IMG/VR virus record: IMGVR_UViG_3300033552_000025
Location: 1-39,539 of that record
DNA length: 39,539 nt
Direction: 5' to 3' (one strand)
From: a virus
Shown: positions 3,015 to 26,790 of the stretch, piece after piece
How the letters are laid out: each line of letters begins with the position of its first letter
Numbering within the stretch: position 1 is the first letter of the stretch
The notes under the pieces: model-generated
Seen by the model: the letters and a program-made list of their open reading frames with translations, nothing else
What the model was told of the DNA's origin: nothing
Databases searched by the model: none
Program-made: the position numbers and the translations under genes

Positions 3015-3572
3015 TTAGCGTGCCAGCTTGGAGCGGCGGAGTTGCTTCGACGTTGCCTGAACATCGCAGCCGGTCAGGTTCAGAATGAATGGAATGTCAT
3101 CATCCATATCCGAGAAGTTCGGGGCTGGCTTCGGGTCGGGCCGAGTGCCTTGATACCCCTTCGGCACTGGCGCATCACGCTGGCCGGTGCCGCCCTGGTA
3201 GCCCTGCTGGCCTTGCGTTTCGCCGCCCGCAGACTTCCCGCCCAACATCTGCATCGACTCGGCCACGATATCGGTCGCGTACTTCTCGACGCCATCCTTA
3301 TCGGTGTATTTGCGGGTCTGCAAACGTCCCTCGACATAAACCGTGGAACCTTTTTTGAGGTACTGGCCGACTATTTCCGCAAGCTTGCCGAAGAAGGAGA
3401 TGCGGTGCCACTCGGTCAACTCCTTCTGCTCGCCCGTATTCTTGTCCTTTGACTTGAACGAAGTAGCGACTGCCACATTGGCGATGGCGTCACCGCTCGG
3501 CATATAGCGCATTTCAGGATCGCGCCCGAGATTTCCAATGATGATGACTTTATTAACTGATGCCATGTTCAT
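3015..3572 (-). CDS. ssb: Single-stranded DNA-binding protein (OB fold, Gly/Gln-rich linker, DDDIPF motif) with a 23-aa C-terminal extension
   Basis: N-terminus [18 protein letters not shown]...[37 protein letters not shown] is canonical SSB. The DMDDDIPF motif is present but is not C-terminal. Confidence 0.92.
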
Positions 3573-4462
3573 GCCCCTTCGGTTTGTGGTGTGGTGAGTT
3601 CTTCTTTGCGACCGTTGTAGACGTTCTTCACGGCGGTCAGGGCGTCCTCATTGCTGAGCGACTGTGCGTAGCGGTAAGCCGCCTTGTAGTGCGTTTGCAG
3701 CACTTCCAGCGACTCGGCCTCGATCATTGGGGCAATCAAGTCCGTAAGCTGGTCCTCGCTGAACTCGGGCGCCTCAACGCCAGTTGCGAGCCATGCCATG
3801 ATCGCGGCGCCGGTATCTGGCGTGATCACTTGCGGATCGCCGCCGAACAGTCCGGTGCGGTCTTTGGTGGCTGTGGCGTAGTGACCGCCGTGGACCAGAT
3901 CAAGCACGGTCGTGAACTCGTAAATGATCCCGTCGCGCTGCTCCGCCTTCATGCCGAGCTGTAGAATCTTGGTCTTGCCGTTGGAATCCTTCTCTGACGC
4001 GGTGTCGGTCTTGCTGCGCATGGTGACAATCACATGCATCTTGGCTTGCAAGATCGCATCAACAAAGGCGCGGTGGCGCGGATCGCTCTCCGACCATGCG
4101 GACCACGTATTGCCCTTGTACTTAGAAGCGGCCAGCTTCTCGTTAAGCTGCAACATGCCGCCCGTACCGTTCCACTCGTGCGTGATGCTGTCGATGATGA
4201 GCGTGTCATACCCGCCCGCCTCGGCTTCGCGGATCGCGGCAATGTAGCGCTCGGGACTGTAGGGCGCTGTCAACTCCATCACATCGAAGTCAAGCAGATC
4301 GCAGTACAGCGACGCGGAGCCGTGTTCGGTGTCGATGACGGCTACCTTGCCGCCCAAACCTTTCGCCAGGAGGATTGAAGAATATGTTTTTCCTGATCCT
4401 GATGGGCCGGTAAGCGCAAGCCTCAGCTTTGCCTGCTTCCGTACTGCCTTTGCGAATGCCAT
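3569..4462 (-). CDS. Sak4-like RecA-fold AAA ATPase (ssDNA annealing/recombination), 297 aa
   Basis: Walker A GPSGSGKT and Walker B LIIDSITH. The overall pattern matches phage AAA_24/Sak4 proteins, and the gene is adjacent to ssb. AAGAGGA RBS. Confidence 0.85.
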
Positions 4463-7968: not shown

Positions 7969-8166
7969 TTATTCAACTTCTACCGAGGATGGGCAGGAGC
8001 CTTCATGAATTTGCCAAAACTTCTGACCGGCGTAGTTGTATTCGCATTTCCACATCCACTTGTAAGTGACGGTTTGAACCTGCTCTTGGCGACCCGTCCA
8101 AAAAGCCGTTGCAGCGTACGCTGGCGCGGCAACAGCAATTACCACTAATATCCATAGCTTTTTCAT
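7969..8166 (-). CDS. Small secreted protein, 65 aa, with a Sec-type signal peptide (MKKLWILVVIAVAAPAYA|A)
   Basis: GGGGGA RBS, a classical n-h-c signal with an AxA site, and two Cys in the mature part. Confidence 0.65.
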   Translation of the reverse strand: MKKLWILVVIAVAAPAYAATAFWTGRQEQVQTVTYKWMWKCEYNYAGQKFWQIHEGSCPSSVEVE

Positions 8167-8206
8167 GTAATCCCCCTTATTCGGCCAGAAGGCGGGCCGT
8201 TGCGCC

Positions 8207-8236
8207 GTTATATTTGGAAATATTGCGAATCGTCAA
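8207..8236 (-). promoter_or_regulatory. Sigma70-like promoter for the 3-gene cassette (TTGACG-N18-TATAAC, minus strand)
   Basis: The -35 is the reverse complement of 8231..8236 and the -10 is the reverse complement of 8207..8212. It lies about 40 nt upstream of the 8166 start. Confidence 0.5.
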
Positions 8237-8590
8237 TAATCATTCTGATCGGGTAAAAATCACGCATATACACTATTTATTTCTAACGTGCAATATCACA
8301 AAAACACTGTTACACTCGAATGTCACGCAATGTAAATTGCCTTGCACCAACTCAGCGACGGGCGTAATTTGAGACTGCGCCCCAAGAAATGTCGCTGACC
8401 TCTTGGCCCCGAAACCCCGCGCCAAGTTGTCAAATGAGAGTGCCGCCAGATGTACGCGGGTTAGTAGAGCCAGCTTGACCCCATCGTCCACGCCTAGAAA
8501 ATGCACAGACAAATTGATAATGAAATGCTCGCCCTTTTTGCCTCGATTAATGATGACGCCCAAGCAGAAGTATTGAAATTTGTCAGAGCT

Positions 8591-17990: not shown

Positions 17991-18463
17991 TGAGCGGAGT
18001 GACGCAATACAGCCAAGAGGTGGCCGCATCGATATGTGAACGACTGGCTAATGGCGAAAGCCTGCGCACGATCTGCTGTGATGTGGAGATGCCAGCGCAA
18101 TCCACCGTGTTCAAGTGGCTGAGCGAGCAAGCCGCGTTCTCGGAGCAATACACGCGCGCACGTGAGGCTCAAGCCGACTTTATGGCAGACGAGATTCTTG
18201 CGATTGCTGATGACGGGCTGAATGACACGTACGTCGATGAAGACGGCAGGAAGCGTACCGATCAGGACGTTATTGCCCGCTCTCGTCTGCGTGTTGATGC
18301 GCGCAAGTGGCTCGCTTCCAAGATGGCCCCAAAGAAGTACGGCGACAAGGTGCAAACGGAAGTCTCGGGCGGCTTGACCGTCAATTCAGTGAAAGAATTA
18401 ACCAATGAGCAACTGGCTACCATCGCCGCAGGAGGCAGCATCCGAGCTGCTGGCCCGGCGTAA
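17990..18463 (+). CDS. terS: Terminase small subunit, 157 aa
   Basis: The pattern YSQEVAASICERLANGESLRTIC...STVFKWL...F.EQYTRAREAQADFMADEILAIAD is typical of this TerS family. The gene is directly upstream of TerL. Confidence 0.8.
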   Translation: MSGVTQYSQEVAASICERLANGESLRTICCDVEMPAQSTVFKWLSEQAAFSEQYTRAREAQADFMADEILAIADDGLNDTYVDEDGRKRTDQDVIARSRLRVDARKWLASKMAPKKYGDKVQTEVSGGLTVNSVKELTNEQLATIAAGGSIRAAGPA

Positions 18464-19886
18464 AGCTAGTGAATCGCTGATCGACTTCACGACTTACACG
18501 AAGCCGGAGTTCCAAGTTGGGCAGCATCACCAGCAGATAGCAGAGGCGCTTGAGTCAGTTGAGCGCGGTGAGTGTGATCGGCTGATGATCTTTGCGCCGC
18601 CCCGACACACGAAGTCAGAGTTGGGGTCAAGGCGGTTCCCGGCGTGGTATCTCGGGCGACACCCTGACCACCAGATGATTTGCGCCACCTACTCGGGCGA
18701 TTTCGCGCTCGACTTCGGGCGCGATGTGCGGGGGATAGTGGGAAGTGAGGAATACGCCAATGTGTTCCCGGATGTGTCGCTGGCTGCTGACTCACGCGCT
18801 GGCAACCGCTGGCACACGAACAAGGGCGGCATATCAGTGTATGTGGGTGTTGGCGGGCCAATCACTGGCCGTGGCGCACACGTGGCGCTGATCGATGACC
18901 CGTTTAAGAATCGCCAAGAGGCAGACAGCGAGGCACGGCGCGAAATGGTGTGGAAGTGGTACACCTCGACGCTGCGCACGCGCTTGATGCCCGGTGGCGC
19001 GATTGTGCTGATTCTGACGCGTTGGCATGAGGACGACTTGGCCGGGCGACTGCTGGCGAAGAATGCAGGCGAGTGGAAGGTAGTTAATCTGCCCGCCGTC
19101 GCCAACGAAGGCACTAAGCACGAGCGCGCACTTTGGCCGGCATGGTATCCGCTGGACTCGCTCAAGCGCATCAAGGCTGACGTTGGGCCGCGTGACTGGT
19201 CTGCGCTGTACCAGCAGGAGCCAGCGCCGGCAGAAGGCACGTTCTTCAAGCGCGAATGGTTCCGCAGGTTCCGCAAGGGCGACGAGCCGAAGCACGTTCA
19301 CAAGTACATGACAAGCGATCACGCGCCAGCCGGAGGCGATGAGAGCGACTTTAACTGTGTGCGCGTCTGGGGCGTTGATCACGTCGGTGACCTGTACATG
19401 CTTGACGGATTCCGGGCGCAAGAGACGCTGGACCAAGTGGCTGACAAGGTTGTAGGCGACAAGAAGGAAAAGAAGATCGGGCTGATTCAGCGGCATAAGC
19501 CGATGTGCTGGTTCCCCGAGGACGACAACAATTGGAAGGCAATCGCCGGTTTCGTTACTCGCATGATGCGCGAACAGAGTGTCTATTGCCGTGTTGAGCC
19601 GATATCGCCACATGGCAGCGACAAGCCAACCAAAGCGCAGCCGTTCCAAGCTATGGCGTCAATGGGGCGCGTCTGGATACCCGAGGGGCCAGAAGGCGAT
19701 GACGTGATTGAGCAATACCTAAAGTTCCCTGTTGGCAAGAATGACGACGAGGTAGACGCAGCCGCAGTAATGGGGCGCGCACTGGATATGGCGCACCCGG
19801 CAATCCTGCCAATAGTTGAGCAGAAAAAGCCGCGTGACATTTACGCGATGGACGACGAAGAAGAGGAATCATGGCGGACTATTTGA
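18405..19886 (+). CDS. terL: Terminase large subunit, 493 aa
   Basis: ATPase motifs (FAPPRHTKSE, ALIDDPF) and nuclease-domain acidic motifs (NDDEVDA). Position is conserved. Confidence 0.92.
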   Translation: MSNWLPSPQEAASELLARRKASESLIDFTTYTKPEFQVGQHHQQIAEALESVERGECDRLMIFAPPRHTKSELGSRRFPAWYLGRHPDHQMICATYSGDFALDFGRDVRGIVGSEEYANVFPDVSLAADSRAGNRWHTNKGGISVYVGVGGPITGRGAHVALIDDPFKNRQEADSEARREMVWKWYTSTLRTRLMPGGAIVLILTRWHEDDLAGRLLAKNAGEWKVVNLPAVANEGTKHERALWPAWYPLDSLKRIKADVGPRDWSALYQQEPAPAEGTFFKREWFRRFRKGDEPKHVHKYMTSDHAPAGGDESDFNCVRVWGVDHVGDLYMLDGFRAQETLDQVADKVVGDKKEKKIGLIQRHKPMCWFPEDDNNWKAIAGFVTRMMREQSVYCRVEPISPHGSDKPTKAQPFQAMASMGRVWIPEGPEGDDVIEQYLKFPVGKNDDEVDAAAVMGRALDMAHPAILPIVEQKKPRDIYAMDDEEEESWRTI

Positions 19887-21961
19887 AAGAAAGCGACGGC
19901 GACAAGCTTACGCGCCTGGTGGGCTATTTCGAGTCCGCCGAGATGGCGACAGTAGAGTCACGCGCGCTTGCTGAGAAGTCCCGCGATTACTACGATGGCG
20001 ACCAATGGACCGCAGTCGAGCGCGAAGCGCTGAAGAAGCGCAAGCAGCCATGCACGACCATTAACCGCATCAAGCCGAAAGTTGATTTCCTGCTCGGCAT
20101 GGAGACGCAGCGCCGCAGCCTGCCGAAAGCCTACGCCCGCACGCCAAAGCACGAGGACGATGCCCAGGCAGCAAGCGATGCGCTTCGCTATGTGTCGGAA
20201 GATCAGCAACTTGAGGTGATCGGATCCAAGGGCTTTGAAAACCTATGCATCGAGGGCGTGTGCGGGGTCGATGTGGCTGTGGTCGAATCGAATGGCAAAA
20301 AGAACATCGTACTGAATGGCATGGAGTGGGACCGTCTGTTTTGGGATGCTCATAGCCGCAAGCGTGATTTCTCGGACGCGAAGTATAAGGGCCAAGTCGT
20401 CTGGATGGACTATGACGACGCGGTAGGCAAGTTCAAAGGCAAAGAGGGCGTGCTCTCGTCTACCTTGTCCAGTGAATCGCAAATGTCCGAGACACACGGA
20501 GATGTGCCGCGCATCCGGTGGGCTGATCCGAAGCGCAAGCGCGTCCGCGTGGTCGAAATCTGGCACAAAGACGGCGCCATGTGGCATCACTGCCAGTTCA
20601 CCAAAGGCGGCGTACTGTCGGCCATGGAATCGCCATACAAGAACGACGAGGACGAGTCTGTACCGGGCTTCATCTTCGGTTCAGCGTTCATTGACCGCGA
20701 CGGCAACCGCTACGGCGTGGTCAAGAACTGGATTGACATCCAGGACGAAATCAACAAGCGCCGCTCCAAGGCGCAACACCTGCTATCCGTTCGTCAAGTC
20801 AAGTATGAGCGCGGCGCAGTCGCTGACGCACGTAAGATGCAACAGGAGCTAGCCAAGCCTGACGGCGCAATCGAAGTTATGCCTGGCATGATGTTCGAAA
20901 CGCTCGACACCGGCGATATGGCAGCATCACAGTTCAGCCTACTCCAAGAGGCAAAGCAAGAAATCGACAGCGTAGGCGTGAATGCTGCGCTGGCCGGCAC
21001 CGATCAGCGGCAAATGTCGGGCCGTGCGCTGATTGCCCGCCAAGAGTCCGGCCTCTCCGAGCTTGGCCCACTGTTCGACGCCTATAAGCAATGGAAGCTG
21101 GATATCTACCGCGCCGCCTGGAGCCGCATTCAGCAGTTTTGGGATGAAGAAAAGTGGGTGCGTGTCACTGACGACGAAAAGAATGTCCGCTTCGTCGGCT
21201 TGAATCAGCCTGTCACGCTTGGGCAGCAGTTGATCGAGGAAGCGCAGTCGCAGGGCGTGGAAATCACACCTGATATGCAGGCGCAGGCCGAGCGCGACCC
21301 GTCCATGCAGCAGCGCGTAGCCATCAAGAACAACGTGGCCGAGCTGGACGTTGACATTGTGCTTGACGATACGCCCGCCTCCGCATCAGTGCAGGCAGAA
21401 CAGTTTGAAACGCTCGCCGGTTTGGCTAAGGCTGGCATCCAGATTCCACCGACCGCGATCATCAAGGCATCGAGCCTGCGCAACAAGGACGAGATATTGA
21501 AAGAAATGGGCGCTGGTGGCCCGTCGCCTGAATCGCAGCAGGCGCAGCAGCAGATTCAAGAGCTGCAAGGCCAATTGCAGTCGCTCGGCGAGAGTTTCGA
21601 CAAGCTGGAAGCGGGCGAGGCCGCAGCAGCAGAAGAGCGCCGCATCAAAGCGTACGACTCAACAACTAACCGACTCAAGGTGTTGGCCCCATTCCTCACG
21701 CCGACAATGGCATTGCAGCTTGCTCAAAACATTGGTCTTGACCTGAGTAACGATCCTGACCTAAGCCAGATGGGGATGCAGCCCGACCCTGGCGGCGAAC
21801 CACCCCCGGGACAGGATATGCCAGCCGAAGCGCAAGAGCAGCCACCCGAGATGATGGGCGAACCACCGCCCGAAGAAATGATGATGCAACCAGAACAGCC
21901 CGCCGATGCGGGTTTTTTTACGCCTGAAGAGGCTCCACCAACCGAAGCACCAGCCATCTAA
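19871..21961 (+). CDS. Portal protein, 696 aa, with an acidic/Pro-rich C-terminal tail
   Basis: N-terminal pattern SRDYYDGDQWT..E...L..RKQP..TINRI.PKVD, plus size and position after TerL. Confidence 0.9.
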   Translation: MADYLKESDGDKLTRLVGYFESAEMATVESRALAEKSRDYYDGDQWTAVEREALKKRKQPCTTINRIKPKVDFLLGMETQRRSLPKAYARTPKHEDDAQAASDALRYVSEDQQLEVIGSKGFENLCIEGVCGVDVAVVESNGKKNIVLNGMEWDRLFWDAHSRKRDFSDAKYKGQVVWMDYDDAVGKFKGKEGVLSSTLSSESQMSETHGDVPRIRWADPKRKRVRVVEIWHKDGAMWHHCQFTKGGVLSAMESPYKNDEDESVPGFIFGSAFIDRDGNRYGVVKNWIDIQDEINKRRSKAQHLLSVRQVKYERGAVADARKMQQELAKPDGAIEVMPGMMFETLDTGDMAASQFSLLQEAKQEIDSVGVNAALAGTDQRQMSGRALIARQESGLSELGPLFDAYKQWKLDIYRAAWSRIQQFWDEEKWVRVTDDEKNVRFVGLNQPVTLGQQLIEEAQSQGVEITPDMQAQAERDPSMQQRVAIKNNVAELDVDIVLDDTPASASVQAEQFETLAGLAKAGIQIPPTAIIKASSLRNKDEILKEMGAGGPSPESQQAQQQIQELQGQLQSLGESFDKLEAGEAAAAEERRIKAYDSTTNRLKVLAPFLTPTMALQLAQNIGLDLSNDPDLSQMGMQPDPGGEPPPGQDMPAEAQEQPPEMMGEPPPEEMMMQPEQPADAGFFTPEEAPPTEAPAI

Positions 21962-23901: not shown

Positions 23902-24122
23902 TGCGTGAGTTCACCTATTTAGGTGACGTGGAGGTGACCCTTTACGGGGTCACTTTTTCGCCTAACTCCCCTACTCCTGTGCCCGATGAGAAAACCACGC
24001 TTATCGGCAAATTAACCGGCAATCGATACTTCAAGGAACACCATGGCGACCAAGAGCGAGCTAGCGTTGCGCCTGCTGAAGAAATTGGGCGTCGTCGGCG
24101 CGGGCCAAACCGCAAGGGCTGA
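23901..24122 (+). CDS. Hypothetical protein, 73 aa (3' end overlaps the next gene by 80 nt)
   Basis: TAATG coupling to the capsid gene. The true 3' end is uncertain. Confidence 0.4.
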   Translation: MREFTYLGDVEVTLYGVTFSPNSPTPVPDEKTTLIGKLTGNRYFKEHHGDQERASVAPAEEIGRRRRGPNRKG

Positions 24123-24375
24123 TGATCAAGAGCTTGCTGAGGAAAAGATAGCAGCGGTGCATGACGCCCTGGTATCGTTCGGCAAACCGCGTTGGACCCT
24201 TGCTGCCGTACCTGAATACGCTGCCGAGGGCTATACCTTGATGGCTACCGTGCTTGCCGCTCCTGAGTTTGGCGCTCCTGTTGATGGTGGAGCATGGACT
24301 GCTGGTCTGCGCATGGTGTCTGCGGGCGCGGCTCTCGGCCCGTCATCCGACCCAATCACCTCGGAATACTTCTGA
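24043..24375 (+). CDS. Head-associated structural protein, 110 aa (decoration or connector candidate)
   Basis: AAGGA RBS. The call rests on position after the capsid gene only. Confidence 0.55.
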   Translation: MATKSELALRLLKKLGVVGAGQTARADDQELAEEKIAAVHDALVSFGKPRWTLAAVPEYAAEGYTLMATVLAAPEFGAPVDGGAWTAGLRMVSAGAALGPSSDPITSEYF

Positions 24376-24713
24376 TGAATCTCGCATTCGATGTAGCGCT
24401 GAATCGACCAGCCGGAATCCGTGATTTCGCGGCGTTCGTTGGCGACCAGTTCACGGTATCAATCGCCTTCTACGACAACGACGGCGACGCAGCCACGGCG
24501 AACCTGACGGGCAGCACTGCCACTATCGAAATCCTGCGCTGTGGCGATGTGGAAGTCTCGGTTGTTGGTGTAATTGTGGCTGGTGTGGCTACTTTCGATT
24601 TCGGCAGTGCTGACCTGTCGGGCATAGTCGGGCGCAACGTCTTCCGCTGCAAGCTGACGCGCTCGGGCAAGGTTGCCACTGTGGTGCGCGGCTCGTTCAC
24701 GGTGGCCGACTAA
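24375..24713 (+). CDS. Hypothetical beta-rich structural protein, 112 aa
   Basis: Internal ATG of the track ORF with TGATG coupling. Confidence 0.55.
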   Translation: MNLAFDVALNRPAGIRDFAAFVGDQFTVSIAFYDNDGDAATANLTGSTATIEILRCGDVEVSVVGVIVAGVATFDFGSADLSGIVGRNVFRCKLTRSGKVATVVRGSFTVAD

Positions 24714-24796
24714 TGACCCGCATCACCCTCACCGCAGCGTCATACGCCGCGCGGTCACTGATCGCGAGCGCGCAACGCTGCGTGATTATCGTGTAA
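24713..24796 (+). pseudogene. Orphaned original 5' end (27 codons) of the gp10-like gene
   Basis: MTRITLTAASYAARSLIASAQRCV matches [24 protein letters not shown] at 25375. It keeps the native TAATG junction with the upstream gene and GC-rich codons, and it ends at a TAA inside the tandem repeat. Confidence 0.75.
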
Positions 24797-24843
24797 ATCT
24801 ATACCCAGATCGTGTTATCGTGTAAATCTATACCCAGATCGTG
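24786..24843 (+). repeat. Perfect 29-bp tandem duplication (TTATCGTGTAAATCTATACCCAGATCGTG x2)
   Basis: 24786..24814 equals 24815..24843, with a partial third copy (TTA). It sits at the left junction of the insertion. Confidence 0.95.
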
Positions 24844-24874
24844 TTACCATTAAGCCACTTTAATGGGAGGTTTT

Positions 24875-25378
24875 ATGAAAACGCGCGAAGATTTGACTGG
24901 TAAGGTTTTTGGTAAGTGGGCCGTTGTTGACTTTGCCTACTCGAAGAATAGAGCCTCATATTGGAACTGCAAATGCGAATGCGGCTCTTCAGTAAAAGTT
25001 GTGATTGGCTCGACGCTCAAGAACGGCGCATCGCAATCGTGTGGGTGTGAAACATTAAAGAAATTCAAGGAACGAATCCACAGGCACGGGGTAGCGGATT
25101 CCAAAATACACATGATCTGGTGCTCGATGCGACAGCGATGCTCAAACCCCAACAACCGGGCGTACAAGAATTACGGGATGCGCGGCATTAAGGTTTGCGC
25201 CCGCTGGCAGAGCTTTGAGAACTTTTATGCCGACATGGGGCCAACGCATGTTGATGGGTTGACGATTGAACGAATCGACAATGATGGCGACTACGGCCCT
25301 GAGAACTGCAAATGGATTCTCAGAAGTGAGCAATCAAAAAATCGGCGCGATGCCAAACTTTGGAATAGAAAAAGATGA
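24875..25378 (+). CDS. HNH-type homing endonuclease-like protein, 167 aa
   Basis: GGGAGG RBS. The pattern [10 protein letters not shown]....... W.CKCECG....V....L..G...SCGC ... H.MW..MRQRC.NPN...YKNYG.RGI.VC..W..FENFY.DMG ... IERID.DGDY.P.NC.W is typical of phage free-standing HNH/AP2-like endonucleases. Confidence 0.72.
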
Positions 25379-26790
25379 CACGAATTGTCTTGACCAGTTC
25401 TTCGTATAGCTCGCGAAGCCTAATTGCGAGCTCACAAAGGGCAGTCAATCTGTACGCCGAGTTAAACCCGGTCGATGCTTCTGCGCCGATGACGTTTCAC
25501 GGGCGCCCCGGCCTGGTGCTGTGGTCCACCGTCCCCGGCTCGGGTGCTGTCCGCATGTTGTACGTGTCGAGCAATGGCGTGTTGTTCGCGGTGCGCGGCT
25601 ATGGCCTGTACCGCTACAGCGCGGGCGCATGGGTATTCGTGTCGAGCCTGACGACGAACGAGGGGCGCGTATACGCTGCTGACAATGGCATTGTTGCCGT
25701 CTTCGTTGATGGCACTACAAGCGCTCCCACGGTCAACCTGCTGACGTTCGCAGTCGGCATGATGGCCGGTGAAGGCTGGTACGGAGCTGACTTCGTTGAC
25801 TTCCTCGGCGGCTTCTTCATCTTCAACAAGCCAGGCACGCAGCAGTTTTACATCACCAGCGCATACGGCGTTGAGATTGACGCGCTCGATTTCGCGTCGT
25901 CCGAGTCGCAGCCTGACCCGATTGTCCGCTCGTATCGCGATCACTCCGAAGTGTGGTTCTTCGGTACACGCTCGACTGAGGTATTCACCAGCGTAGCGGC
26001 CACCTTCCCATTTGACCGTATTGGCGGCTCGGTGATGGAGGTTGGCTGTGCTGCCCCGGCATCCGTCGCCAAGCTGGATAACTCCGTGGTGTGGCTGAGC
26101 GCCGACGAACACGGTGACGGCATGGTGATGCGTGCGCAGGGTTACAACCCGGTCCCTATCAGCACGCGCGCCCTTGAGGAAGAGTTCCGCACGTACGCGA
26201 CCATCAGCGACGCGCAGGCGTATAGCTACCAACAGGGCGGGCACTGGTTCTATGTGCTGACCTTCCCGACTGCCAGCAAGACCTGGGCGTATGACGCATC
26301 TACGCAACTGTGGGCCGAGCGCGCATATCGCACGCAAAGCAACCAGACGCAGCGCGTGCGCGACAACTGCCACGCCTACTTCGACCGCAAGCACCTCGTG
26401 GGCGATTGGGAGAACGGGAACATTTACACGCTCGACCTCGATACGTACACCGACAATGGCGCGGAAATCGTGCGCGTGAAGTCGTTTCAGCACATGACGA
26501 GCGATAACCGCCGCCAGTTCTTCAAGAGCCTGACGCTCGATATGCAGGCTGGCGTGGGCAATGCGTCCGACCCTGACCCGCAAGTGTCGTTGCGCTGGTC
26601 CGATGACGGCGGGATCACATGGTCCGCGATGCTCACCACATCCATCGGCAAGGTCGGCCAGTACGGCTACAAGCCATGCTTTAACCGGCTCGGCATGGGG
26701 CGTGATCGCGTGTTTGAGGTATCGACCTCGGCTAACGCAAAGATCGCCTTGCAAGGCGCGTTCCTTGAGGCGCAGGTAGGTACATCATGA
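25375..26790 (+). CDS. P22 gp10-like packaged-DNA stabilisation / tail hub protein, 471 aa
   Basis: The call rests on size (P22 gp10 is about 472 aa), position, a beta-propeller-like repeat character and its start next to the connector genes. This is recall, not alignment. Confidence 0.55.

Follow-up and report, generated by a model that had tools for sequence, protein, structure and literature searches.

Why should one structural gene of a phage begin twice, and what is a gene for an HNH-like protein doing between the two beginnings? The question is raised by the IMG/VR virus record IMGVR_UViG_3300033552_000025, of which the whole stretch of 39,539 nucleotides (nt) was analysed and is called the window here. 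In this window, the intact gene for a 471-residue (aa) head-closure protein is preceded by a short, stranded copy of its own 5' end, and an open reading frame (ORF) of 167 aa separates the two. The best answer, to which we give a probability of roughly 0.75, is that an intron-less homing-endonuclease cassette was inserted at about codon 24/25 of a P22 gp10-type head-closure gene, and that the ribosome-binding site (RBS), the start codon and the diverged codons 1-24 brought by this cassette keep the gene working. The elements concerned are listed below, where GC3 is the GC content at third codon positions and the stranded copy is called the stub.

24375..24713, + strand: late gene 5' of the stub, 112 aa when read from the ATG at 24375; stop codon and ATG of the stub overlap (TAATG), which is the native junction
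24713..24784, + strand: stranded native 5' end of the head-closure gene (stub), codons 1-24, GC3 0.83; its ORF continues to the TAA at 24794-24796
24785..25446, + strand: cassette as a whole, about 662 bp, made up of the repeat and remnant of the junction, the hairpin with the RBS, the endonuclease gene and the new 5' end
24875..25378, + strand: putative homing endonuclease, 167 aa, 48% GC, HNH-like (I-HmuI-type core with Arg in place of His), with a Cys-rich domain at the N-terminus
25375..25446, + strand: cassette-borne replacement 5' end, start codon and codons 1-24, GC3 0.50; its ATG overlaps the stop of the ORF (ATGA, 25375-25378)
25375..26790, + strand: intact head-closure ('packaged DNA stabilisation') gene, 471 aa, a hybrid of the cassette 5' end and the native rest

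Two beginnings of one head-closure gene

The interrupted gene is a P22 gp10-type head-completion gene, since its 471-aa product matches phrog_578 (head closure Hc3, E = 1.6e-111) and PF11134 (Phage_stabilise) is precomputed in the protein database for this protein and its homologues. A Pfam scan of the protein (window 25375-26787) returned no family at E <= 0.01, although PF11134 is precomputed for the identical sequence. Consistent with the original prediction, the gene begins twice, at a native ATG at 24713 and, intact, from 25375, and all the predicted elements were found in their places. The first ATG lies within a TAATG that overlaps the stop of the upstream gene and opens a 27-codon ORF, MTRITLTAASYAARSLIASAQRCV followed by IIV and a stop, which ends at 24796. 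Over 24 codons, the stub and the replacement copy are identical at 17/24 aa and 41/72 nt, with 14, 19 and 8 matches out of 24 at codon positions 1, 2 and 3, respectively; 5 codons are identical, 12 differ synonymously and 7 non-synonymously. The local protein alignment scores 83, whereas 20,000 shuffles average 19.3 (sd 4.0) and reach 44 at most, and elsewhere in the window, all six frames included, no score exceeds 43. The duplication of the gene start is therefore real, and the alignment of the two 72-nt segments that had been proposed as a check gives a similarity far above chance.

The base composition changes with the copies. The window has 57.5% GC, and GC falls to 0.41-0.49 across the cassette, whose 167-aa ORF is AT-richer (48% GC) and ends in a TGA overlapping the new start, as had been noticed beforehand. 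It had also been stated that native GC-rich usage returns after about codon 24; this point has to be amended, as the return is gradual and takes place between codons 25 and 37. In 12-codon windows of the intact gene, GC3 is 0.58 for codons 25-36, 0.67 for codons 31-42 and at least 0.83 from codon 37. Because of this gradual recovery, the right edge of the foreign tract is placed between codon 24 and about codon 36.

Comparison with uninterrupted genes indicates which of the two starts is the original one. The closest uninterrupted homologues are those of loci L110, L112 and L114 (75-77% aa identity) and of the Janthinobacterium prophages L023 and L024, others being at 66-68%. The stub matches L001, L110, L112 and L114 at 55/72 nt each, against 35-42/72 for the replacement copy. 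It fits the family consensus (...ARSLIASAQRCV), breaks where the homologues read on NLYPE and diverges from all of them exactly after codon 24 (plus one A). Since the stub is closer to relatives devoid of the ORF and departs from the homologues only after codon 24, the stub is the original start of the gene and the functional start is foreign.

Loci with and without the cassette, and the probable target site

Homologues of the ORF were collected by a protein search of 5.8 billion sequences followed by contig look-ups. Each of the four nearest ones (70, 66, 62 and 56% identity) is directly followed by a PF11134 gene, and their contigs come from samples that are not related. The ORF is polymorphic among the head-closure loci, being present in the window, L106, L107, L108 and L109 and absent from L001-L025, L110-L117 and L201. 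In L106, a stub (MPRVILQSASYTARSLLASAQR-WE and a stop) sits on a TAATG junction and is followed by the endonuclease gene and then by a re-coded gene start; L108 (stub MRALLTSASYTAQSLKANAQRCI...) has the same layout. In L107, only the native ATG is left of the stub (codons 2-22 are deleted), and it is fused in frame to the ORF via a CINLYD remnant; the fused endonuclease ORF (L107 193-774) has 193 aa, and the enzyme may there be translated from the original, translationally coupled start of the target gene. L109 has no stub: the endonuclease gene lies between two genes, with a re-coded 5' end. The same contig carries, just 5' of the coat gene, a GIY-YIG gene on the opposite strand (1854-2600, - strand), which would be a second putative homing endonuclease in the structural module.

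The relatives without the ORF (L110, L112, L114 and L001-L024) lack the whole cassette. They carry a single N-terminus of the stub type (M.R..LT.ASY.ARSLIASAQRCVNLYPE) that abuts the upstream gene via TAATG or TGATG, and never both copies; the comparison with uninterrupted homologues that had been suggested at the outset is thus in favour of an insertion. L201 has no ORF but contains, within otherwise GC-rich native codons, a cassette-type patch (AGG TCA ATA AAT) at codons 22-25 (2794-2900), which is identical to the functional copy of L108. On sequence grounds, this patch looks like a footprint, left either when stub and copy recombined and the cassette was lost, or by a co-conversion that did not include the endonuclease gene. 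The 'QRS' alleles of L116 and L117 were also considered as former cassette hosts and rejected: they have neither the ORF nor the cassette-type codon usage and look like natural variants.

The re-coded 5' end belongs to the mobile unit and travels with the ORF, because the window and L106 copies are more alike (76% over the first 66 nt) than each is with its own stub (59% and 53%, respectively), as expected if flanking target sequence is transferred by co-conversion. More generally, stubs cluster with the genes that have no endonuclease ORF (GC3 of stubs, 0.77-0.90) and re-coded ends cluster by cassette (GC3 of cassette copies, 0.27-0.59). The re-coding is an inherited divergence of the foreign copy, not a rewriting within this genome, and the earlier claim that the element carries an altered copy of the target 5' end is borne out.

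The stub and the functional copy keep the states before and after the event together, as had been pointed out, the former being of the native type and the latter of the cassette type; with both in one molecule, the likely recognition site and the immunity changes can be read from the sequence. In 20 head-closure genes without endonuclease, the most conserved 15-mer covers codons 20-26 (GCG CAG CGC TGC GTG AAC). The stubs break at this place, within codon 23 in L106 and one base past codon 24 in the window and L108. The only well-conserved positions altered in all five cassette copies are base 1 of codon 22 (CGN to AGR) and base 2 of codon 23 (TGC to TCR or GCA), the window copy having AGG GCA in place of CGC TGC. 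Codons 20-26 are thus the likely candidate for the recognition site and codons 22-23 the likely candidates for the immunity changes. That the carried copy would be changed had been anticipated; every cassette copy is altered at these two codons, in the conservation peak of the target.

The same layout recurs in a second gene. Among 143 other loci of more distant family members, the score between upstream and downstream flanks has a mean of 37, against 83-101 for the three stub-bearing loci, and the flank-duplication signature revealed one further genuine case, L188 (score 101). The apparent duplications of L162, L038, L050, L060 and L169 were discarded as GC-rich, low-complexity and out-of-frame matches. 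In L188, a 43%-identical family member lies between two copies of the start of another gene, the stub reading MNYKLTNSTSIIRTADGAFIPADPANTDYA-EASHG and a stop, and the intact 130-aa gene (phrog_6034) lying downstream. Stub and copy are identical at 46/84 nt and 19/28 aa, with 8/28 third positions conserved and GC3 values of 0.83 versus 0.48, which is close to the figures of the window; the stub agrees with the consensus of that family at 26/28 positions, compared with 21/28 for the new copy. The target gene of L188 also occurs in L198 and L199, with a near-identical re-coded start and a stub, but there the intervening ORF is an unrelated, canonical HNH endonuclease with NUMOD3 repeats (compared regions: L198 2247-3393, also L199, versus L188 254-1365). 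L200 is the empty site of this target gene. Because L188 and L198 share near-identical re-coded ends but have different endonuclease families, the alignments suggest either that nucleases are swapped within one rescue cassette or that one site is invaded repeatedly.

The HNH-like protein and the left edge of the cassette

The 167-aa protein matches phrog_374 'HNH endonuclease' (E = 2.8e-56), PHROG labels being annotations only. This family (phrog_374 and relatives) is common, with members in 526 cultured phage records, and has a conserved N-terminal Cys-rich motif (C.C.C...SCGC). The AlphaFold (AF2) model of the protein has a mean confidence score (pLDDT) of 92.6 and ends in a C-terminal beta-beta-alpha unit (strands 129-133 and 145-149, helix 150-155). 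In a viral structure library, Foldseek retrieved only family members labelled HNH or AP2. In the alignment with I-HmuI, D74, N87 and N96 correspond to E132, to the invariant N144 and to N156, whose conservation is at least 90%; the beta-beta-alpha unit thus has the acidic residue and the two asparagines (structural and metal-binding) expected of the HNN group. In the Staphylococcus phage S-CoN_Ph1 (L202, OR354824.1), the DNA polymerase is annotated as two coding sequences, and a family member (3495-3977) that overlaps the 3' end of the second one by 14 nt simply comes after the polymerase.

The left edge of the cassette contains the following elements.

24781..24846, + strand: 29-bp tandem array at the left junction, 2.2 copies (Tandem Repeats Finder), perfect copies at 24786-24814 and 24815-24843
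24790..24816, + strand: target-like remnant CGT GTA AAT CTA TAC CCA GAT CGT GTT (RVNLYPDRV), matching target codons 23-29, in low-GC codons
24819-24845, + strand: second copy of the target-like remnant
24840..24885, + strand: predicted RBS-sequestering RNA hairpin, minimum free energy -13.5 kcal/mol, z = -2.6
24842..24850, + strand: candidate extended -10 element TGT TACCAT, found by eye, with counterparts TGTTATAAT in L106 and TGAGATAAT in L107

The perfect 29-bp tandem repeat announced between the two copies is indeed found at 24786-24843. The array starts on the last native bases CGTG and is probably a junction or repair duplication; L106 has a single copy of an element homologous to the 29-bp unit. 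The RVNLYPDRV remnant is contained in each unit, in a different frame, and the pattern [VI]NLY[PAD] occurs three times in the six frames of the window, twice in the repeat and once in the real gene. Homologous remnants are found at the left edge in L106 (CVNLYPDRV, single copy), L108 (CINLYPVRV) and L107 (CINLYDV), and the filler sequence between stub and remnant is different in every locus. The repeat is not filler, because each unit holds a target-like remnant whose counterparts have been kept at the left edge in other cassettes. We read this remnant as the fossil of the gene of an earlier host, now moving with the cassette and joined to each new stub by imprecise repair, the alternative being a role as an operator.

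The 7-bp AT hairpin that had been described as overlapping the RBS is also present: CCATTAA (24847-24853) pairs with TTAATGG (24860-24866), which overlaps the GGGAGG RBS (24865-24870) of the ATG at 24875, and the minimum-energy fold pairs both the RBS and the start codon (24875-24877). Hairpins of differing sequences that occlude the RBS are predicted at the equivalent place in the window, L106, L107, L108 and L109 (z from -1.3 to -3.5). Such hairpins are the usual control device of the homing endonuclease genes of T4 (PMC2988022). The sequence at 24842..24850 is proposed with low confidence as an extended -10 promoter element; a sigma-70 consensus scan of the insert detected no promoter. The cassette is not housed in an intron or intein: the ORF is separate, the downstream gene has its own ATG, and an Rfam search of 24300-25900 returned no intron or other family at E <= 1.

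Upstream of the stub, relatives have one adaptor-like gene (218-229 aa) before the head-closure gene, in place of which the window has two abutting genes. The first (24043-24375, 110 aa) has an adaptor-like N-terminus and the second (24375-24713, 112 aa) has an unrelated C-terminus. A frameshift in an adaptor gene was suspected and ruled out, the two genes being joined by TGATG. The left flank of the window is thus a mosaic, and the stub may be the sole left-hand homology open to other cassette-bearing phages.

Mechanism, rival readings and precedents

Intron-less homing into about codon 24, as put forward in the original prediction, is supported by these comparative data and could proceed as follows. 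The endonuclease would recognise the most conserved stretch of the target (codons 20-25, GCG CAG CGC TGC GTG AAC) in phages without the cassette and break their DNA, and in a mixed infection the break would be repaired off a cassette-bearing genome. On the right side, homology in the body of the gene would give a seamless in-frame junction. On the left side, codons 1-24 of the recipient would persist as a stub, joined to the cassette edge via the CGTG microhomology and the 29-bp duplication. Both copies would then be uncuttable, the stub because the right half of the site is gone from it, and the functional copy because its left half is altered (CGC TGC to AGG GCA). The heavy synonymous divergence (third positions 8/24) should suppress recombination between stub and copy, which would delete the cassette. 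Expression of the endonuclease is probably throttled by the RBS-sequestering hairpin, and translation of the head-closure gene is probably coupled to that of the endonuclease ORF through the ATGA overlap. Of this scheme, the sequences establish the anatomy of the locus, the polymorphism of the cassette, the joint transfer of 5' end and endonuclease gene, and where the changes and breaks lie; the cleavage with its exact site, the route of repair and the regulation are inferred.

Several points weigh against this reading. The 167-aa protein has no Pfam or NCBIfam match, a Foldseek comparison of its model with the PDB gave nothing significant (best E 0.47), and the family profile (101 members) matches I-HmuI (1u3e) only marginally (E = 0.18), over the HNH core. 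The general-base histidine of HNH enzymes, at the end of the first beta strand (His75 in I-HmuI), aligns to R133, which is invariant in the 101 family sequences. If the cassette had simply inserted at the cut site, no target-like remnant would be expected at its left edge, and in L109 the lineage is seen to lie between two genes with no stub at all. As to the immunity changes, the five cassette copies share ancestry and do not represent five independent events at codons 22-23, and each of the two changes is found singly in genes without the ORF (L011, L013, L116, L117, L009). Finally, neither a donor nor a near-identical empty-site genome was found, the closest relatives being at 75-77% protein identity. 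Searched at the nucleotide level, 50,697 phage records yielded nothing beyond short matches (68-77% identity). In scans of viral, genome and metagenome contigs, the matches listed did not exceed 68% identity for head-closure relatives and 54% for endonuclease relatives, those listed from metagenomes belonging to the broad family only.

Because the resemblance to I-HmuI is weak and an invariant arginine stands in place of the catalytic histidine, cleavage by the 167-aa protein is something that we infer from genomics, and the protein is best described as an HNH-like relative with a non-canonical active site and not filed as a proven HNH nuclease. The initial label of 'HNH-type endonuclease' is hence kept in part: the marginal profile match to I-HmuI speaks for it, and the missing Pfam match and the replaced histidine speak against it. 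I-HmuI, an HNN enzyme of Bacillus phages, has the core VDHKD..TNLRW..VEN, which aligns with ieRid..peNcrW..akN in the family of the window, where the beta-beta-alpha unit is modelled. Unlike I-HmuI, this family has an unrelated N-terminal Cys-rich domain in addition to the arginine; moreover, I-HmuI is intron-encoded and nicks one strand, whereas the ORF of the window is free-standing. That so common a phage 'HNH endonuclease' family has an invariant Arg at the position of the catalytic His raises the biochemical question of whether and how it cuts DNA.

Four other explanations of the locus were weighed. Ordinary mosaic or illegitimate recombination could have joined a left arm ending at codons 1-24 to a right arm with the ORF before its own head-closure gene, the HNH-like protein being then a DNA-binding or regulatory passenger or a decayed nuclease. 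The family-wide replacement of the catalytic His by Arg, the failure of any nuclease family model to match, the upstream genes that differ from the single adaptor gene of the relatives and a left junction resembling non-homologous joining (CGTG microhomology and duplication) all fit with such an origin. However, it needs breaks at codons 23-25 in three lineages (window, L106 and L108), each beside one ORF lineage, and would need an equal layout in a second gene as well; it also leaves unexplained the low-GC copy that ends near the end of the stub and the shared changes at the conservation peak. The residues matching D74, N87 and N96 of I-HmuI are retained, and the ORFs are intact in all five loci. 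We consider it improbable, without being negligible. A tandem duplication of the 5' end in this genome, diverged in place and with the ORF captured later, would account for the two copies being direct repeats around the ORF, but it is ruled out for practical purposes because re-coded copies cluster by cassette: the copy is nearer to that of L106 than to its own stub, its codon usage is cassette-like and not genome-like, and its synonymous sites are saturated (8/24) while the stub stays 76% identical to relatives. The window coming from a metagenomic contig of 39,553 nt (jgi/ena), an assembly chimera of endonuclease-plus and endonuclease-minus strains also had to be envisaged. It is hardly credible, as an equal layout is present in independent assemblies of unrelated samples (L106 from SRR29078153, L108 from SRR26787644, and L188 and L198 from other projects) and as a chimera would not make a unique junction sequence, a 29-bp duplication or a remnant.

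The most serious competitor concerns the stub itself, which could be an accident. The ORF would normally lie between the upstream and head-closure genes, as in L109, and home by replacing the whole interval, a stub being left only if the upstream gene of the recipient has no homology with the donor and the left side is repaired by end-joining. L109, which has the ORF and a re-coded end but no stub, and L107, which lacks stub codons 2-22, agree with this scheme, as do the upstream gene of the window, unrelated to the adaptor gene of relatives, and the left junctions, which vary by locus and hold filler or duplications. Against it, three of the five loci have a stub, as do L188 and L198, the two loci of the second system, and the conserved remnant next to the stub suggests an arrangement that is inherited and not newly made each time. 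We regard this scheme as a serious minority view; it touches the left junction only and has the rest of its mechanism in common with the homing-cassette reading.

In a wider and more speculative perspective, the combination of a stub, an endonuclease gene and a re-coded 5' end might represent a general class of phage mobile elements, so far undescribed. It would be a natural 'home-and-rescue' drive of several unrelated endonuclease families, with the nuclease swappable in a fixed rescue cassette, and the left-edge remnant, doubled in the 29-bp repeat and beside the putative extended -10, would serve as an operator for self-repression. We hold this proposal as tentative and, on balance, doubtful. 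An analogy for the remnant as an operator is provided by I-TevI, which represses its own gene at an operator resembling its homing site. In synthetic 'home-and-rescue' or 'cleave-and-rescue' gene drives, the insert goes into an essential gene and carries a re-coded, cleavage-immune rescue copy. The cassette is alike in its logic, with a nuclease, an immune re-coded copy and a disrupted original; unlike these drives, it is natural, is not RNA-guided and would act between co-infecting phage genomes.

The closest precedent is found in the mobile ORFs (mORFs) of fungal mitochondria, which replace the 3' ends of genes and of which the phage case is the mirror image. There, the mobile gene is of the LAGLIDADG or GIY-YIG type and brings along a foreign C-terminal end, which is fused in frame to the target, while the C-terminus native to the gene is left stranded on the 3' side; examples are atp6 of Allomyces macrogynus, atp6, atp9, cox2 and nad3 of Glomus sp., atp9 of Rhizopus and cox2 of Mortierella. 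In Glomus, native ends are 91-98% identical to a relative and the duplicated ends are 64-81% identical to each other (PMC3630166), versus 76% to relatives for the native end of the window and 57% between its two ends. Both systems associate a free-standing endonuclease ORF with a diverged end of the target gene joined in frame and a stranded native end; in both, the native remnant groups with relatives and the inserted copy elsewhere; and both are read as endonuclease-driven horizontal transfer. Unlike mORFs, the phage cassette replaces a 5' end and must supply an RBS and a start codon, its remnant lies upstream, its enzyme is HNH-like, its left edge adds a target-like remnant and an RBS hairpin, and its host is a structural gene of a double-stranded DNA phage, not a mitochondrial respiratory gene.

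Among phages, SegF and SegG of T4 are free-standing endonucleases engaged in intron-less homing. The same holds for SegB and MobE (PMC2330249, PMC2790892, PMC2988022). The ORF of the window resembles these T4 genes in being free-standing, present or absent among related phages and under the control of a predicted RBS hairpin, and both are thought to cut the allele without the ORF and to be copied with flanking markers (co-conversion). The activity of the T4 enzymes is demonstrated, whereas that of the protein of the window comes from genomic reasoning; moreover, genes of the T4 type are intergenic or divide a gene into two parts that both work (nrdA of Aeh1, with mobE). A review of T4 homing (PMC2988022) makes no mention of duplicated or truncated gene ends. 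Our searches of the open-access literature brought up no phage in which an endonuclease is described as carrying a duplicated or re-coded end of a gene, which is not a proof of absence.

If this interpretation is correct, a selfish nuclease gene can occupy an essential structural gene of a phage with neither intron nor intein, by bringing a re-coded replacement of the part that it displaces, a logic common to engineered 'home-and-rescue' drives and, in mirror image, to fungal mORFs. In the annotation of phages, the layout accounts for some short ORFs and chimeric starts of genes that had been puzzling. It also provides a searchable signature, in which an endonuclease ORF is preceded by a short ORF repeating the N-terminus of the gene that follows, with a contrast in GC3 between the two; phage metagenomes could be screened with it for pairs of endonuclease and target.

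By its gene order, the window reads as a complete P22-like phage genome, with ORFs of the size of terminase, portal and scaffold genes and a capsid gene (Pfam Phage_capsid_3), in that order, 5' of the cassette region. Two of them serve as landmarks, their labels being given by ORF size and order.

18405-19886: putative terminase ORF
19871-21961: putative portal ORF

The terminase-associated HNH packaging factor of the HK97 gp74 type is encoded by a conserved HNH gene beside the terminase and portal genes. The cassette ORF does not follow this pattern: it sits about 5 kb 3' of the terminase ORF and about 3 kb 3' of the portal ORF, among head-completion genes, and most relatives are without it. 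Elsewhere in the window, the lowest GC (0.458, below even that of the cassette) is found at 8001-8400, which may be another foreign insert.

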